A stretch of 64,000 bases of DNA from Bdellovibrionota bacterium FG-1 (lineage in GTDB: Bacteria; Bdellovibrionota; UBA1018), in the NCBI GenBank assembly GCA_051382295.1, contig JBBCAW010000005.1:32001-96000 (forward strand). Reading direction: 5' to 3'. The position numbers and the translations under genes are program-made. The notes beneath the pieces are model-generated. The model searched no databases. It saw nothing but the letters and a program-made list of their open reading frames with translations, and was not told the DNA's origin. This document shows positions 28,265 to 35,359 of the stretch, piece after piece (position 1 is the stretch's first letter; each line of letters starts with the position of its first letter).

Positions 28265-29779
28265 CTAAATCCCCACGGTCCCTCTGCGTCCTTTATCTTG
28301 ATAGGTTTGGTGAATTCGTTCGAAGATATTGACGTTCTTATCGAGGAGCGAAATCGGGCCTTCGCCCGCGGGTCCACGACCGCCAAAGTCGGCAATGCCG
28401 TTGGGATTTTTTTGTGCGTCGTCTTTTTTCGGTAAAAACTGCGCCAGGAGTCCTGAGAGGTCGGGGCCTTTGTCGGGCGTGCCGCCGCCACCGCCGCCAG
28501 ACGCGTAGCCGCCACCTTCGTAGCCTGACCCTTTGGATGAATCCGCCATTTTGGCTTGAGGGTCGGCGTTATCGCCACCCGAAGCGGGTGCGGTTGAGGC
28601 GCCACCGTTGAAACCACCTCCACCTCCGCTGCCACCGCCGGGGGGGCCTGAGCTTGAAAATTTACCGGCTGCAGGTCCCGGGTCTATGCCAGTTTTTGGG
28701 ACGTCGGCGATCGGGCGTCCGAGGCTTCCGTTATCGGGAGTAAGAGGTGTGCTATCTTGCGCAGCTTGGACATCGCTCGTGCCAGCGCCGTTGAGTGACG
28801 TGGGCGCAGCGGGCGCGAGCGCATCGGCCGGGCCGACTTGTCTGGCGCCCATGGGTGCAAATGGACTAATGGTCGGCACTTGGTTTTCGAGAGCTTTGAG
28901 TTTGTCGGCGGTATCATCGAGTTGATTGGCGCTCATGATGTTAAAGCCTCCGGTCATCATCTGGGTTGCGCCTTGGATGATGGACATCATTCCACCGGCC
29001 ATGGCTTCTTTGGCCATTCCGCCTTGCTCGTCAGCGGCTTTGTTGGCGATGCGTTTAGTGTCCCTTTTCATCGCACCTTTCTTCATTTCAATTTCTTGAT
29101 TGCGGGCTGCTTCCTGCGCTTGTGCTTGAGATGGGCCTGGGACCACATCTGTTGTGATGTGGTATTTTTCGTTTAATTTAAAGTTTTTGACGATCCGATC
29201 GTTTACGCCGCCGTCAGTCGCTGCGCTCACAAAACCTTGGCCACCGAGTGAGCCATCACCAACTTGTGGACCCTTTTTTTCGGCTTTCAAGGCTTCTGCG
29301 CTTCCTCCTTTGATCTCTTTGGCGTTACCCTTATGGTCGGCATATTGAATCATTTGAACGAGGCCCAGGCCGGTATTGAGTCCGCCTGTGACGAGTTCGA
29401 TGTCGCCCGTGGTTCGTTGGGTAACTGCGGCGGCATGAAGTGTGGCGGATTGTGTTCCTCCTGCTGCTTGTGCGTTCATCTGTTGGGATTGCCCTACCGC
29501 TGCGGTTGAAATTTGACCTGCAGCTTGCGTGACGGCATTGGTGACTTTCGCGCCTTCGATCATGGCGCGTGTGCCACCACAGCCGTAGCGATCACCGTTA
29601 ATTCCAGCTGAAACTTTGCAATCGGAATCGTTTGTGCTGTATCCATCGGCTTCGTCCCATCCGCCGTCTCGTTCGAGTTTGGGAGTGATGGGTTTGTCCT
29701 CGGCGCGGGCCTCTCCCCCCATTCCCAATCCCACCATGAAGGTTAGCGCGAATACAAATCGTAGGCTGCGTGATTTCAT
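28265..29779 (-). CDS. Secreted Gly/Pro-rich hypothetical protein (paralog B)
   Basis: ARA signal peptide, Gly-rich helices, C-terminal DKNVNIFERIHQTY. Confidence 0.8.
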   Translation of the reverse strand: MKSRSLRFVFALTFMVGLGMGGEARAEDKPITPKLERDGGWDEADGYSTNDSDCKVSAGINGDRYGCGGTRAMIEGAKVTNAVTQAAGQISTAAVGQSQQMNAQAAGGTQSATLHAAAVTQRTTGDIELVTGGLNTGLGLVQMIQYADHKGNAKEIKGGSAEALKAEKKGPQVGDGSLGGQGFVSAATDGGVNDRIVKNFKLNEKYHITTDVVPGPSQAQAQEAARNQEIEMKKGAMKRDTKRIANKAADEQGGMAKEAMAGGMMSIIQGATQMMTGGFNIMSANQLDDTADKLKALENQVPTISPFAPMGARQVGPADALAPAAPTSLNGAGTSDVQAAQDSTPLTPDNGSLGRPIADVPKTGIDPGPAAGKFSSSGPPGGGSGGGGGFNGGASTAPASGGDNADPQAKMADSSKGSGYEGGGYASGGGGGGTPDKGPDLSGLLAQFLPKKDDAQKNPNGIADFGGRGPAGEGPISLLDKNVNIFERIHQTYQDKGRRGTVGI

Positions 29780-29838
29780 ATCTTCCCCCTAAACCACCCC
29801 AAGGCGACACACCTCAAAGGACGGTTTGTTACCTCTTG

Positions 29839-29867
29839 ATTGTCATCTGAATTTATGTCTGAGTCAA
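29839..29867 (-). promoter_or_regulatory. Putative sigma-70 promoter of paralog B
   Basis: TTGACT-N17-GACAAT. Confidence 0.55.
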
Positions 29868-29925
29868 TAAGTCAAGTAATAATCGGCAGCTTGTTTTCTA
29901 TAGCATTGATTTAAAAGGCAAAATT

Positions 29926-30026
29926 AGGAATTCTCGGCGAGGGTGTCGGGGACGGCCATCCAGGCCTCGGCCGCTCTTGTCGCATCCATGCGACGCGGAC
30001 GCCCCTCACCTCGCCGCAGAATTCCT
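29926..30026. repeat. Branched palindromic element (REP/MITE-like)
   Basis: Outer stem AGGAATTCT-CGGCGAG / CTCGCCG-c-AGAATTCCT with inner CATCCA-containing hairpins. Confidence 0.65.
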
Positions 30027-30299
30027 CGCGCCCGCCTGCGGCGAAGGAGCCCTTGCGGCATAAATACCTCACCTTTCGAGGCAAAGGGGTGGGCCGCTTC
30101 GGGCGCTTTTATTGGCTGGGCGGGCTTGCGAGTGGGATGATTAGGCAACCGCATCCCTTAGTTCGCTCCTGGATCGGAAACTTTTTTTCCGGGGTCTTCT
30201 TCTTGAAAGGCTGAGAGCTGATAGCTGACAACTCTAAATGAACCAAATCGGACAGCTCCCATCCATGAGAACACCGGTTGCGCTGCACCCGGAGCCTCC

Positions 30300-30452
30300 T
30301 CATTGATGATCTAGATAGAACAGAACCAACTTGGCTAAAAACCACAAAAACTGGGATAGAATTTTTTGAGTCCCTATTTTTTGCTTTAGTTTTTTAAGCC
30401 ATCGACGAAAAGAATAGTGTTCGGCCTTGCGACCGTTCTTCTTGTTTTTCAT
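30300..30452 (-). CDS. 50-aa cationic amphipathic peptide, copy 1
   Basis: AAAGGAGGT RBS; MKNKKNGRKAEHYSFRRWLKKLKQKIGTQKILSQFLWFLAKLVLFYLDHQ. Confidence 0.8.
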   Translation of the reverse strand: MKNKKNGRKAEHYSFRRWLKKLKQKIGTQKILSQFLWFLAKLVLFYLDHQ

Positions 30453-30523
30453 CGGGGTTACCTCCTTTCTTGTGAAAAGGGGGTAGCTCCATCTTTCCTG
30501 TCCGATTTGGCAGGGACCCATTG

Positions 30524-30540
30524 AGCAACTTCAGTGCCAG
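30524..30540 (-). promoter_or_regulatory. Sigma-54 promoter, unit 1
   Basis: CTGGCAC-TGAAG-TTGCT. Confidence 0.85.
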
Positions 30541-30728
30541 CGTTATCGCGATTTTCTCGATGTTTTTGCTGGAGTTTGGTTCGATACGCGGTGAGTGCGG
30601 CTGAAAGTCGGATCAGTGAATTGCAGTCTTCTTCAAAAGCTGAGTGCTAAGCGCTGATGGCTCTAAAAAAACCAAACCGGACAGCTCCCATCCATGAGAA
30701 CTCCAGTTGCGCTGCACCCCGAGCCTCC

Positions 30729-30881
30729 TCATTGATGATCTAGATAGAACAGAACCAACTTGGCTAAAAACCACAAAAACTGGGATAGAATTTTTTGAGT
30801 CCCTATTTTTTGCTTTAGTTTTTTAAGCCATCGACGAAAAGAATAATGTTCGGCCTTGCGACCGTTCTTCTTGTTCTTCAT
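30729..30881 (-). CDS. 50-aa cationic amphipathic peptide, copy 2
   Basis: Same protein as copy 1 with two synonymous changes. Confidence 0.8.
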   Translation of the reverse strand: MKNKKNGRKAEHYSFRRWLKKLKQKIGTQKILSQFLWFLAKLVLFYLDHQ

Positions 30882-30952
30882 CGGGGTTACCTCCTTTCTC
30901 ATTAAAAGGGGGTAGCTCCATCTTTCCTGTCCGATTTGGCAGGGACCCATAG

Positions 30953-30969
30953 AGCAAGGTTGGTGCCAG
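30953..30969 (-). promoter_or_regulatory. Sigma-54 promoter, unit 2
   Basis: CTGGCAC-CAACC-TTGCT. Confidence 0.85.
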
Positions 30970-31170
30970 ATTTATGTGCAACTTCCGGGGGTTTTTGCCT
31001 GGGGGTTGGTTCGATACGCGGTGGGATGGTCGAAAATCGGATCAAATGCTGAAGTGATCTTCTTCTTCGAAGGCTGAGAGCTAAGCGCTGATAGCTGATT
31101 GCTCTAGAAAAACCAAATCGGACAGCTCCCATCCATGAGAACTCCGGTTGCGCTGCACCCAGAGCACTCC

Positions 31171-31326
31171 TCACGGCTGTCTTAGATAGTAGGATATTGC
31201 ATCGGCTAGAATCACTAAAACCTTGGCTAAGACGTAGAGTCGCCAAGATTTCAATTTAAGTTTTTCCAGCCGAATCCGAGACGAATAATGTTCGTTGGTC
31301 TTACGACCAATTTGTTTATTCTTCAT
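31171..31326 (-). CDS. 51-aa cationic amphipathic peptide, copy 3 (divergent)
   Basis: AAAGGAGGT RBS; MKNKQIGRKTNEHYSSRIRLEKLKLKSWRLYVLAKVLVILADAISYYLRQP. Confidence 0.8.
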   Translation of the reverse strand: MKNKQIGRKTNEHYSSRIRLEKLKLKSWRLYVLAKVLVILADAISYYLRQP

Positions 31327-31397
31327 CGGGGTTACCTCCTTTCTTGTTAAAAGGGGGTAGCTCCATCTTTCCTGTCCGATTTGGCAGCGACCCATCG

Positions 31398-31414
31398 AGC
31401 AAAGTTGGTGCCAG
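31398..31414 (-). promoter_or_regulatory. Sigma-54 promoter, unit 3
   Basis: CTGGCAC-CAACT-TTGCT. Confidence 0.85.
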
Positions 31415-31570
31415 GTTTATGTGCAACTTCCTGGGGTTTTTGCTGGAGTTTGGTTCGATACCCGATGAGGATGGCCGAAAATCGGATCAGTGATGGGGTG
31501 AATAGGACAGAAAGCCGGGATGGCGTGTGGGTGTATTCTGAGTGGCATGGGCCCGCAAGCTCTGGTCGTT

Positions 31571-31676
31571 GAGCAGTATCTACTGCCGCGCGGAGGCAGC
31601 TCGTGGCGTTCACCCCGACCTCGGCGCAGTGTACTGCCGCGCGGAGGCAGCTCGTGGCACTCACTCCGAGCTGCTC
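31571..31676. repeat. REP-like doublet
   Basis: TACTGCCGCGCGGAGGCAGCTCGTGGC at 31581 and 31632, enclosed by GAGCAG/CTGCTC. Confidence 0.8.
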
Positions 31677-31737
31677 GCTTTAAAAAGTTGCTCTAAATGC
31701 AGACTTAGGTTTCACTACTGACGGGAGGTTTCCGAAA

Positions 31738-32115
31738 ATGGCAGCTCAAGTGGCCCCAAAAAGTGGCGAATTTCTGGATGGTAAGCTTTGGTTCGAGCGT
31801 AAGGGTAAGACCGTGACGCTTGGCATCACTAGTTTCGCCGTAGAGGAAGTCGGCGAGGTTCAGAGTATTGAATTTCCGGATGAGGGCACCGATTTTGTCA
31901 AAGGCGACACCGTGCTCACGGTTGAAGGCGCCAACGGAAAGCTCGAAGTCATTGCTCCGGCAACAGGGATTATTCAAGAGGTGAACGAAGCCGCTCGTGC
32001 GGAGCCGGACATGGTTTCGGATGATCCTCTCGAGGAAGGTTGGCTCATTAAACTTGAAATCGAAGACACCTCGGATCTCTCAGAGTTCCAAGCCGAAGAA
32101 GACGAAGAAAGCTGA
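31738..32115 (+). CDS. Glycine cleavage H-protein-like, lipoyl Lys absent
   Basis: TLGIT.FA.E.VG, APATG.I.EVN, DPLEEGWL; VEGAN in place of VESVK. Confidence 0.85.
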   Translation: MAAQVAPKSGEFLDGKLWFERKGKTVTLGITSFAVEEVGEVQSIEFPDEGTDFVKGDTVLTVEGANGKLEVIAPATGIIQEVNEAARAEPDMVSDDPLEEGWLIKLEIEDTSDLSEFQAEEDEES

Positions 32116-33331: not shown

Positions 33332-33951
33332 GTGTCGGGAAACCCGCGATGAAGTCCCAGGCAATGCGCTCTTTGCTCGTGGCGGGGCTTCTTCCGGTCA
33401 TCGCATTTACGTTGATCGAAGAATATTACGGCACCCTTGCTGGGCTGGTCGCCGGAATGGTTTTTGGGGTGGGCGAGATTCTTTACGAATGGCGGACGCA
33501 GGGGCGGGTGGACGCCATGACCTGGGGTGGGAACGGTTTATTGCTCACACTGGGAGCGGTTTCGCTTCTGACTGACCAAGGCGTTTGGTTTAAATTGCAG
33601 CCCTCGATCATGGAGGCTTTTATGGCCCTGGTTTTGGCGGGGTCGGTGATTTTAGGAAAGCCTCTGCTGACCGGCATGATCGAAAAACAGTTCAAGGCGC
33701 AAGGGCGTGAAATTCAAGGGCTTGCCCCTCAGTTTCGGCAGGGCTTAACAGGGATGACCTGGCGGATGGCCGTGTTTTTGGCATTGCATGCAGCTTTGGC
33801 CGGATGGGCGGCGCTGAGATGGTCGACCGCAGCCTGGGCGGCGCTCAAGGGGTTGGGGTTTACCTTGAGCTTTGTGCTTTACCTAGTGGTCGAAAGCCTT
33901 GTTTTAAGGTATAGACTCGCTTCCGGAAAACGCGAAAACCACTATGAATAA
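33328..33951 (+). CDS. IspZ/YciB-family inner membrane protein
   Basis: Multiple TM helices, WFKLQP motif. Confidence 0.75.
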   Translation: MSVGKPAMKSQAMRSLLVAGLLPVIAFTLIEEYYGTLAGLVAGMVFGVGEILYEWRTQGRVDAMTWGGNGLLLTLGAVSLLTDQGVWFKLQPSIMEAFMALVLAGSVILGKPLLTGMIEKQFKAQGREIQGLAPQFRQGLTGMTWRMAVFLALHAALAGWAALRWSTAAWAALKGLGFTLSFVLYLVVESLVLRYRLASGKRENHYE

Positions 33952-35355
33952 TGAGAAGTTACCAGAAAAATTTTTTATCCGCACCTTTGGCTGCCAAATG
34001 AACGTGTCTGACACTGAGCGGATGACCGCTCTGTTGGCCGAGCAGGGGATGGAGCCGACCGCAAAGGTCGATGAGGCCGCTTTGATTATTATTAACGGCT
34101 GTACCGTTCGTGAGAAGGCCGTACATAAGGCGGTTTCGACACTGGGCACTTATCAAGGGCTGCGTTTAGAAGGTAAAAAACCCCTCATCGGGGTGGGGGG
34201 CTGCGTGGGGCAGCTCGATAAAGCCGGATTGTTCAAGCGGGCACCTTACCTGGATTTTGTTTTTGGAACGGACACGATTGATAATCTTCCGGAGATTGTG
34301 CATCGCGTGCGTAATGGTGAGCGCCATATCGTGTACGCCGATTTTGACAAGTCGATGGATTATTCGACTGAAACCAAAGTTTTCGGTCAAAAAGCGCAGG
34401 CTTTTGTCAATATCATGAAGGGCTGCGATAAGTTTTGCACCTATTGCATTGTTCCGTTCACGCGCGGGCGTGAAAAATCCCGCACGATGAGTGAAGTGGT
34501 GGACGACGTTGCACGCTTAGTGGCGCAGGGGGTTCGCGAGGTGACCCTGCTCGGGCAAAACGTTAATTCGTACGGGAAGGACAAGCCGGGCGAAAAGTTT
34601 CCGGATCTTCTTCACGCAATCGATACAGATTCTCGATGTAGCAATTTGAAGCGGATTCGGTTTACCTCGAGTCATCCTTTGGACTTTAGCGATGAGCTGG
34701 TGGAATGCTATGAATCTCCTGAAAAGGGAGGCGTGGCGCGCCTCGCCACTCATTTGCATCTTCCCGTGCAAAGTGGAAATGACCGGGTCCTTCAGAAAAT
34801 GGGGCGACATCATAAAATTGAGACCTACATCGCACAGATGGATCGGCTTCGCGAAATCAACCCGGATATCGGGCTTTCGACGGATCTGATTGTGGGCTTT
34901 CCGACGGAAACCGACGAAGAATTCGAAGACACGCTCCGGCTTTTGGATCGAGTGCCTTACGACAATATTTATGCGTTTGCGTACTCGGAGCGGCCGGGGA
35001 CTCGCGCCGCCAAATTGCCGGATGATGTGCCGTTGAAAGTTAAAAATGAGCGCCTGAATCGCCTACTGAATTATCATGGTAAAATCGCCGAAAAAAGTTA
35101 TGCCGTTCGCATTGGCAAAACCCTGGAGATTTTGGTGGAGGGTGAGGCAAAAAATCAAAAACTCGCCGGTGGTAAAAACGCACCCACGGCCGGTCCTCGC
35201 GTTTGGACCGGACATACTTCGTGTAATCGCATCGTCAATTTTGCATGGGATAGTCCCCGGAGTTTGGTGGGACGTTTTGCGCACGTCAAAATCACCTCGG
35301 CCACGGCATTTTCGCTGCAGGGCGAACTTCAAGAGCAACGGTTAGGAGCGGACGA

Positions 35356-35359
<4 letters not shown>
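33944..35359 (+). CDS. miaB: tRNA methylthiotransferase
   Basis: TFGCQMN, CDKFCTYC, TRAM domain. Confidence 0.96.

Follow-up and report, generated by a model that had tools for sequence, protein, structure and literature searches.

The type I toxins of bacteria offer several ways of keeping a dangerous message silent. In the case of hok, the mRNA is stable but is held inert by fold-back pairing of its 5' end with its 3' end, while the primary transcripts of the Escherichia coli systems tisB/istR-1, dinQ/agrB, and zorO/orzO are inactive until their 5' part is removed. Each of these three is present in a single copy and combines a sigma-70 promoter and a trans-encoded antisense RNA with a peptide of 27-29 aa, and transcription of tisB and dinQ is controlled by LexA. 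Sigma-54 promoters are recognized by GG and GC elements 10 bp apart, with transcription starting about 12 nt past the GC and an upstream dyad at roughly -100; to our knowledge, gating by sigma-54 and an activator ATPase provides the tightest transcriptional "off" state in bacteria. Here we describe a tandem array of three small genes from Bdellovibrionota bacterium FG-1 in which a putative sigma-54 promoter appears to be joined to a message folded much like that of a type I toxin. The array lies in a 64,000-nt stretch of DNA (positions 32,001 to 96,000 of contig JBBCAW010000005.1, assembly GCA_051382295.1), which is referred to as the window.

A further point of reference is aapA1 of Helicobacter pylori. 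A published account of this gene describes a transcript of ~250 nt in which the 5' untranslated region (UTR) is paired with the 3' end and the Shine-Dalgarno sequence (SD) is masked until processing, and states that the hok mRNA behaves in the same way (PMC5416894). The units of the present array share much of this design. Judged from sequence, each appears to be an autonomous gene module of ~430 bp and one member of a multi-copy family limited to a single order of Bdellovibrionota. This unit family is conserved, belongs to no described family, and is suggestive of mechanism.

A Multi-Copy Family of Apparently Autonomous Gene Units

A repeat search resolved the array into three tandem, minus-strand direct repeats whose periods are 429 and 445 nt (Table 1), represented by repeat families D1 (three copies of 210 nt, 76-100% identity) and D3 (three copies of 87 nt, 84-100%). 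Each unit contains, in order, the promoter boxes TGGCAC-N5-TTGCT, a 61-nt leader, a AAAGGAGGT ribosome site 7 nt from the ATG, an open reading frame (ORF), and a conserved 3' UTR. An earlier reading of this DNA, made from the sequence only, had listed three tandem units with a promoter, leader, ribosome site, ORF of 50-51 aa, and 3' UTR, and all of these parts were found in place. The peptide of unit 3 is 42% identical to that of units 1 and 2.

The array is one of many such loci. BLAST and a unit profile recovered 25 full-length units from the genome (4.44 Mb, 158 contigs), distributed over 17 loci of which four are arrays of three; three partial matches, all on one contig, and one leader-only match complete the set. 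Every one of the 25 units has GG-N10-GC at a constant distance to the leader, together with a strong ribosome site and an uninterrupted ORF of 43-53 codons. Full-length related units were also found in other genera. Among 400 other Bdellovibrionota genomes, a sample across the phylum rather than a complete census, 21 gave peptide matches (22 of 401 with the genome itself), all of them from the window's own order. By family, matches were present in 14 of 57 genomes searched in f1, 4 of 7 in f2, 1 of 17 in f10, and the one genome searched in each of f6 and f9, and were found in none of 100 genomes in f22 and none of 53 in f21, both of which lie outside this order. A profile built from 24 peptides found 39 matches among 5.8 billion proteins, none with a Pfam domain and the named ones all "hypothetical", and HMMER over 1.84 billion representative proteins found 87, nearly all of 38-83 aa. 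One of the 39 is a protein of "Bdellovibrionota bacterium FG-2". This bacterium is placed in class, order, and family UBA1018 under the proposed name "Bdellonasia", in a lineage described as potentially predatory, and the only toxin-antitoxin genes mentioned in that account are of type II (PMC13200544).

One degenerate unit (G000 C9:1414-1966) retains its promoter and leader; an internal deletion joins its ORF to the 3' UTR, and a partial second copy lies directly upstream.

A Putative Sigma-54 Promoter Heads Each Unit

The promoter boxes are invariant within the array while their spacers differ (TGAAG, CAACC, and CAACT), as the sequence-only reading had noted, and the three start positions that it proposed were reproduced as predictions by placing +1 at 12 nt past the C of the -12 GC. 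In the whole genome, the strict pattern TGGCAC-N5-TTGCW occurs 26 times, and five of these occurrences head units. When the regions upstream of 52 units (25 own and 27 from relatives) are aligned, information content is highest at GGC and TTGCT and low in the 5-nt spacer and the flanks. GG-N10-GC stands at the canonical position and spacing in 47 of the 52, and 42 match at least 9 of 11 promoter consensus positions, as compared to 1% of shuffled sequences. By these counts, the recurrence of promoter and unit together is far beyond chance. The genome is equipped with a single rpoN (one Sigma54_DBD match) and ~25 strong Sigma54_activat matches, representing enhancer-binding proteins (EBPs); none of the latter adjoins a unit at the 17 loci.

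Upstream of the promoter, a GTCCGNATTTCG-like element is found in many units at a distance of ~74 nt from the -24 box, in some cases as an inverted pair, and by its sequence and position it is a candidate activator site. The strict pattern is found at -73 to -75 in 10 of the 25 own units. When up to one mismatch is allowed, GTCCGNATTTCG has 110 hits in the genome, 12 of which fall within the ~0.4% of the genome that surrounds units. The other 98 are close to the chance expectation, and the motif was therefore rejected as too degenerate to define a regulon.

The Reading Frame Encodes a Cationic, Putatively Tail-Anchored Peptide

The ORF is preserved in homologous units; its loss there would, according to the sequence-only reading, have refuted the proposal. 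It is intact in 48 of 53 units, no other frame is open in more than 4 of the 48, and differences in ORF length are multiples of three. The ratio of non-synonymous to synonymous substitution rates (dN/dS) was calculated for the 664 pairs with dS of 0.1-1.5; its median is 0.43, and 99% of the pairs have a value below 1. Entropies at the three codon positions are 1.01, 0.83, and 1.22, with the third position being the most variable. On this comparative evidence, the ORF is under purifying selection and is a real gene, with part of its conservation held in common with an RNA helix internal to the ORF (helix 3).

The encoded peptides follow the consensus MKNK-x3-YYSxRIRLEKLKQKTWxLxVLAKxLxFL-x6-YL, with strong conservation of the core motif RIRLEKLKQKTW between genera. 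They are 43-53 aa long and lack a signal peptide, with a median net charge of +8 and a median best 19-aa hydropathy of 1.92. The AlphaFold2 model, made with 47 sequences, consists of one continuous helix (residues 5-49) with a mean predicted local distance difference test score of 76, rising to 81-92 over residues 21-50. For the three window peptides, the net charges of +11, +11, and +9 and the hydrophobic C-terminal stretch reported previously were reproduced by calculation. Their earlier description as amphipathic is apt for part of the peptide and fails for the C-terminal third, which is plainly hydrophobic, like a membrane anchor.

The Predicted Transcript Pairs Its Ends and Masks Its Ribosome Site

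Two RNA features were absent from the sequence-only reading. The first is a 12-14-bp helix that pairs the first with the last bases of the predicted ~270-nt transcript and that RNAalifold predicts from 12 paralogues as well as from 48 transcripts of several genera. In the 48-sequence alignment, 97.6% of the cells of this helix pair and 9 of its 12 pairs vary on both sides; one such pair is GC in 32 sequences, AU in 10, and CG in 5. The four named helices are jointly 85.8% paired versus no more than 53.6% when the partners are slid by 1-3 columns, and the observed covariation score was reached by none of 500 shuffles. The ORF-internal helix 3 also covaries. The cells of the end-to-end helix include 31 G.U and 2 A.C combinations, and this asymmetry indicates selection on RNA of this strand rather than on DNA-level terminal inverted repeats.

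The second feature is a local hairpin in which the SD is paired with an upstream anti-SD, TACC(C/T)CCTTT with AAAGGAGGTA. The hairpin is 81% paired, with compensatory changes, and the mean unpaired probability of the SD in the predicted folds of the 48 transcripts is 0.07. Cutting away the 5' anti-SD in silico in ten representative transcripts lifts the accessibility of the SD to 0.22-0.79. At the other end of the message, the 3' UTR retains GGGTNCAGC in near-invariant form across the aligned units and, at the stop codon, TGAGGAGG; the UTRs as a whole are conserved at least as well as the ORF.

Just downstream of the T-rich tail of each array unit lie three to four tandem NTCAGCN heptads followed by TTCGAAGAAGAAGA (repeat family D5). 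Five such heptads are present in the unit copy on contig C62, and they are absent from other subfamilies.

Table 1. Positions of the array, its parts, and selected neighboring genes. Positions are those of the window unless another contig is named.
Feature	Position	Strand	Sequence or description	Basis
Whole array	30198..31493	-	three units	repeat search, own-genome BLAST, nhmmer
Unit 1	30198-30626	-		
Unit 2	30627-31055	-		
Unit 3	31061-31493	-		
Unit 1 upstream element	30600..30613	-	ATCCGACTTTCAGC; candidate activator (EBP) site, 74 nt before -24 box	motif enriched at units
Unit 2 upstream element	31029..31042	-	ATCCGATTTTCGAC; candidate activator site	motif enriched at units
Unit 3 upstream element	31474..31487	-	ATCCGATTTTCGGC; candidate activator site	motif enriched at units
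Unit 1 promoter	30524..30539	-	TGGCAC-TGAAG-TTGCT; predicted start 30513	read directly; box conservation
Unit 2 promoter	30953..30968	-	TGGCAC-CAACC-TTGCT; predicted start 30942	read directly; box conservation
Unit 3 promoter	31398..31413	-	TGGCAC-CAACT-TTGCT; predicted start 31387	read directly; box conservation
Unit 1 end-to-end helix, 5' strand	30498..30511	-	GCCAAATCGGACAG	RNAalifold, pair counts, G.U vs A.C counts
Unit 1 end-to-end helix, 3' strand	30243..30255	-	CTGTCCGATTTGG, then T-rich tail	RNAalifold, pair counts
Unit 2 end-to-end helix, 5' strand	30927..30940	-		RNAalifold, pair counts
Unit 2 end-to-end helix, 3' strand	30672..30684	-	CTGTCCGGTTTGG, then T7	RNAalifold, pair counts
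Unit 3 end-to-end helix, 5' strand	31372..31385	-		RNAalifold, pair counts
Unit 3 end-to-end helix, 3' strand	31113..31125	-		RNAalifold, pair counts
Unit 1 SD hairpin	30459..30485	-	anti-SD TACCCCCTTTT with ribosome site GAAAGGAGGTA	RNAalifold, pair counts, SD unpaired probability
Unit 2 SD-sequestering hairpin	30888..30914	-		RNAalifold, pair counts, SD unpaired probability
Unit 3 SD-sequestering hairpin	31333..31359	-		RNAalifold, pair counts, SD unpaired probability
Unit 1 ORF	30300..30452	-	50 aa + stop, net charge +11	
Unit 2 ORF	30729..30881	-	50 aa + stop, peptide identical to unit 1	
Unit 3 ORF	31171..31326	-	51 aa + stop, net charge +9	
Unit 1 structured 3' UTR	30256..30299	-	TGAGGAGG at stop codon, near-invariant GGGTNCAGC, small hairpin	conservation, folds
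Unit 2 3' UTR equivalent	30685-30728	-		
Unit 3 3' UTR equivalent	31126-31170	-		
Heptad blocks	30195-30233, 30624-30662, 31058-31096			repeat family D5
DUF4423 genes near own units	G000 C89:25446-25940, C130:12305-12769, C12:88816-89283, C62:62347-62796			
DUF4423 genes near relatives' units	L094:1815-2630, L103:2586-3143		helix-turn-helix domain detected in L094 gene	
Radical-SAM paralogues	window 33944-35359; G000 C12, start near 85215	+; -	matches UPF0004 + Radical_SAM (C12)	

Searches for Known Families and Partners

A match to an already described family, which would have told against a new system, was found in none of Rfam, Pfam, NCBIfam, PADLOC, or PHROGs. In Rfam 15, only a tRNA elsewhere in the window reaches the gathering score, and matches in 29800-31800 are far below it. 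Pfam gave nothing at E 0.01 for the three window peptides, and a search of Pfam and NCBIfam with 24 peptides at E up to 1 gave no consistently matching family, Hok_Gef, Ldr, TisB, and Fst included. Zero anti-phage defence families were matched in PADLOC, and matches in PHROGs had E values of 0.04 or weaker. In a protein atlas, the peptides reached unnamed clusters only, at 0.90 or below, with the nearest named cluster, TisB, at 0.77, which is the chance level. In full-text searches, no paper linking sigma-54/RpoN to a type I toxin turned up; the matches merely contained both terms.

Pfam annotation of 115 flanking ORFs yielded no recurrent EBP, transporter, or transposase, and no exporter, immunity, or processing gene recurs beside the units among these ORFs. 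Only DUF4423 (PF14394) recurs, with genes of this family lying within ~1.5 kb of 4 of the 17 own loci and of two relatives' units. The genome holds ~33 DUF4423 paralogues, and the rough chance expectation near units is ~0.5. Because their orientation relative to the units varies, DUF4423 genes are not an obligate partner. Two of the three-unit arrays (on contigs C5 and C12) have methylthiotransferase-type radical-SAM paralogues beside them that are 27% identical over 466 aa, which is probably a coincidence.

The immediate surroundings of the array hold repeats of other kinds. Just upstream of unit 3, at 31581-31672, lies a hairpin-bearing, GC-rich repeat of 41 nt that is present in two copies at a period of 51 nt and is similar to repetitive extragenic palindromes. 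On the other side, an imperfect long inverted repeat with an indel (AGGAATTCTGCGGCGAGGTG ... CACCCTCGCCGAGAATTCCT; 29927-30026) lies in the GC-rich spacer between the array and an adjoining minus-strand ORF of 504 aa (28265-29779). This ORF has an N-terminal signal-like segment and long low-complexity stretches rich in Gly, Ala, and Pro, and it gave no Pfam match.

Proposed Mechanism and Alternative Explanations

The sequence itself shows that the repeats form a family, that its promoter boxes are conserved, that the ORF is under coding selection, that the two helices exist, and that the genome carries rpoN and EBPs. With confidence a little better than even, we interpret the unit as encoding a toxin-like cationic peptide with a tail anchor, on an mRNA that is activator-gated and translationally locked. 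The dyad-like element ~100 nt before the start would recruit an EBP, which would open the sigma-54 promoter (-24 GG/-12 GC). Because such a promoter needs an EBP, transcription would be off until the activator is triggered, and all copies would then fire together. The ~270-nt transcript would fold with its first and last nucleotides in the 12-14-bp helix, which may shield both ends and produce a stable RNA, and with its SD hidden in the local hairpin by the upstream anti-SD it would be translationally silent when made. Some later event would permit translation; in silico, removal of the 5' anti-SD frees the SD and 3' trimming does not. The product would be a single long helix of 43-53 aa with a Lys/Arg-rich N-terminal half (RIRLEKLKQKTW) and a C-terminal membrane anchor. 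It may perturb the membrane in the manner of a type I toxin, with the safety catch being provided by the activator-dependent promoter and the RNA lock rather than by an antisense RNA. We infer the start and end of transcription, the activator site, the order of these events, and any toxicity from the features described above. Membrane activity of the peptides and a role in prey lysis, dormancy, or defence, as the sequence-only reading had suggested, may be envisaged. A bolder form of the proposal is possible, if doubtful, in which one EBP together with sigma-54 would fire all ~25 dispersed mini-genes, their mRNAs would be stored end-paired and ribosome-blind, and a second, RNA-level trigger would complete an antitoxin-free, two-key permeabilization of the membrane serving dormancy, abortive defence, or self-lysis in UBA1018, a lineage of potentially predatory, partly magnetotactic Bdellovibrionota.

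Several observations weigh against a locked, toxin-like message. The transcript starts and ends and the dependence on sigma-54 are all predictions from sequence, and 5 of the 52 units, three of them from two genomes, lack the GG/GC core through a degenerate -24 or -12 box. A search of sequencing runs turned up none of RNA that contains the stretch, and two of DNA that cover small shares of it (0.07 and 0.06). The dN/dS pairs and the covariation cells are non-independent observations. In thermodynamic folds of the ten representative transcripts, the SD stays buried after six nested 3' truncations. No RNA antitoxin was found: a scan of the antisense strand for sigma-70-type promoters gave no conserved candidate (no alignment bin exceeds 6 of 48 units), and no second locus complementary to the leader was found in a search for loci that could pair in trans. 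With none found, the unit is not classifiable as a type I toxin-antitoxin system. When the flanking ORFs of the 17 own loci were compared all against all, two sporadic pairs and no recurrent neighbor gene emerged. If each copy were truly toxic, 25 potentially lethal genes in one genome would be a large load. Finally, conservation of the core motif RIRLEKLKQKTW is higher than is usual for a type I toxin, which hints at a specific binding partner over plain membrane damage.

This last point leads to the rival that we take most seriously, while still regarding it as unlikely, namely that the unit encodes a benign small membrane protein, a tail-anchored accessory or regulatory subunit that is made in bulk during a sigma-54 stress response and is non-toxic at native levels. 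Many stress-induced bacterial proteins of <50 aa modulate transporters, kinases, or the envelope. Conservation of RIRLEKLKQKTW across genera suggests a defined binding partner, and the tolerance of 25 copies, the purifying selection on the ORF, and the failure to find an antitoxin all suit such a protein. However, a doubly locked mRNA, tandem multi-copy spread, and a very high positive charge typify toxin mRNAs rather than those of ordinary small membrane proteins, and there is no conserved neighbor to act as the partner. It is improbable that the peptides are instead released as cytolytic or antimicrobial agents, made in a burst under response-regulator control and exported against prey or competitors. 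The staphylococcal phenol-soluble modulins and delta-toxin are small, signal-less helical peptides, and the units resemble them in encoding cationic, helical products without a signal peptide from tandem copies. The lineage has been described as potentially predatory (PMC13200544). Yet no exporter, immunity, or processing gene recurs near the units, the hydrophobic part is a C-terminal anchor-like stretch rather than a fully amphipathic helix, and an RNA lock makes more sense if the product endangers its producer.

The remaining alternatives assign the conservation to something other than the peptide. That the unit is chiefly a regulatory RNA, with the leader and 3' UTR of a sigma-54-dependent small RNA (possibly of dual function) as the working parts and the ORF as secondary, we regard as quite improbable. 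Small RNAs that depend on sigma-54 are known from other bacteria, conservation of the UTRs matches or exceeds that of the ORF, GGGTNCAGC is near-invariant, and helix 3 covaries within the ORF. These points have to be set against an ORF that is intact in 48 of 53 units, with indels that preserve the frame and a dN/dS of 0.43, and against a strong, correctly spaced SD and ATG that are kept in every unit; in addition, Rfam has no match. The least credible suggestion, to which we give almost no weight, is a non-autonomous repeat akin to a miniature inverted-repeat transposable element, the ends of which would be DNA-level terminal inverted repeats and in which ORF and promoter would be incidental. 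Dispersal over 17 loci and complementary 13-14-nt ends that covary between subfamilies would be expected of such an element. The excess of G.U over A.C fits RNA pairing on this strand and led to its rejection; moreover, the conserved unit runs ~130 nt past the "left end" to take in the upstream element as well as the promoter, selection acts on the ORF, and no transposase recurs nearby.

If the peptides are toxic, the sigma-54 gating, the apparent lack of an RNA antitoxin, and the ~25 co-regulated copies would be unusual for a type-I-like toxin. Even if they are benign, the unit packs promoter control, mRNA-end pairing, and masking of the ribosome site into 430 bp. The more than 50 diverged units, with their clear covariation and coding signal, constitute unusually rich comparative data for an uncultured lineage, and they allow precise mutants and reporters to be designed at once. 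The unit family may also give access to a large sigma-54 regulon in a phylum about which little is known.

Comparison With Known Systems

We know of an mRNA architecture of this kind only from type I toxin messages. The comparison with type I toxins that the sequence-only reading had drawn is strengthened by the SD-sequestering hairpin and the covarying pairing of the 5' and 3' ends. As in type I systems, the peptide is small (<60 aa), with a hydrophobic C-terminal stretch and a single predicted helix, and the ribosome site is masked in the fold of its mRNA (unpaired probability 0.07). Long-range 5'/3' pairing, a hallmark of the hok/aapA class, is present and varies on both sides, while the exposure of the SD by 3' processing that belongs to the same class was not seen in the in silico folds. 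The antisense RNA of type I systems has no counterpart in the sigma-70-type antisense scan or the complementary-locus search.

Among individual systems, hok/sok is similar in its ~50-aa peptide, its fold-back 5'/3' pairing, and its multiple chromosomal copies. It differs in that the units described here have no Pfam Hok_Gef match, no mok-like overlapping frame, no detected Sok-like antisense RNA, and another class of promoter. The tisB, dinQ, and zorO systems resemble the units in the conditional nature of their transcription or mRNA activity, and 5' removal frees the SD in the present folds as well, whereas their antisense RNAs, sigma-70 promoters, short peptides, and single copies set them apart. 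For aapA1/IsoA1, the likeness extends to a transcript of ~250-270 nt for a small membrane peptide, several chromosomal copies, pairing of the 5' UTR with the 3' end, and a masked SD in the primary transcript (PMC5416894). Here, by contrast, no IsoA1-like antisense RNA was detected, a putative sigma-54 promoter takes the place of the housekeeping one, the SD is locked by a local hairpin that stays closed on 3' trimming in silico, and the peptide, of 45-51 aa with a C-terminal anchor, has no sequence similarity to that of aapA1. With sigma-54/EBP promoters in general, the units share GG and GC elements 10 bp apart, a predicted start ~12 nt after the GC, a candidate upstream dyad at about -100, and a genome that carries rpoN and ~25 EBPs; they depart from them in that the target is a stand-alone mini-gene repeated ~25 times.

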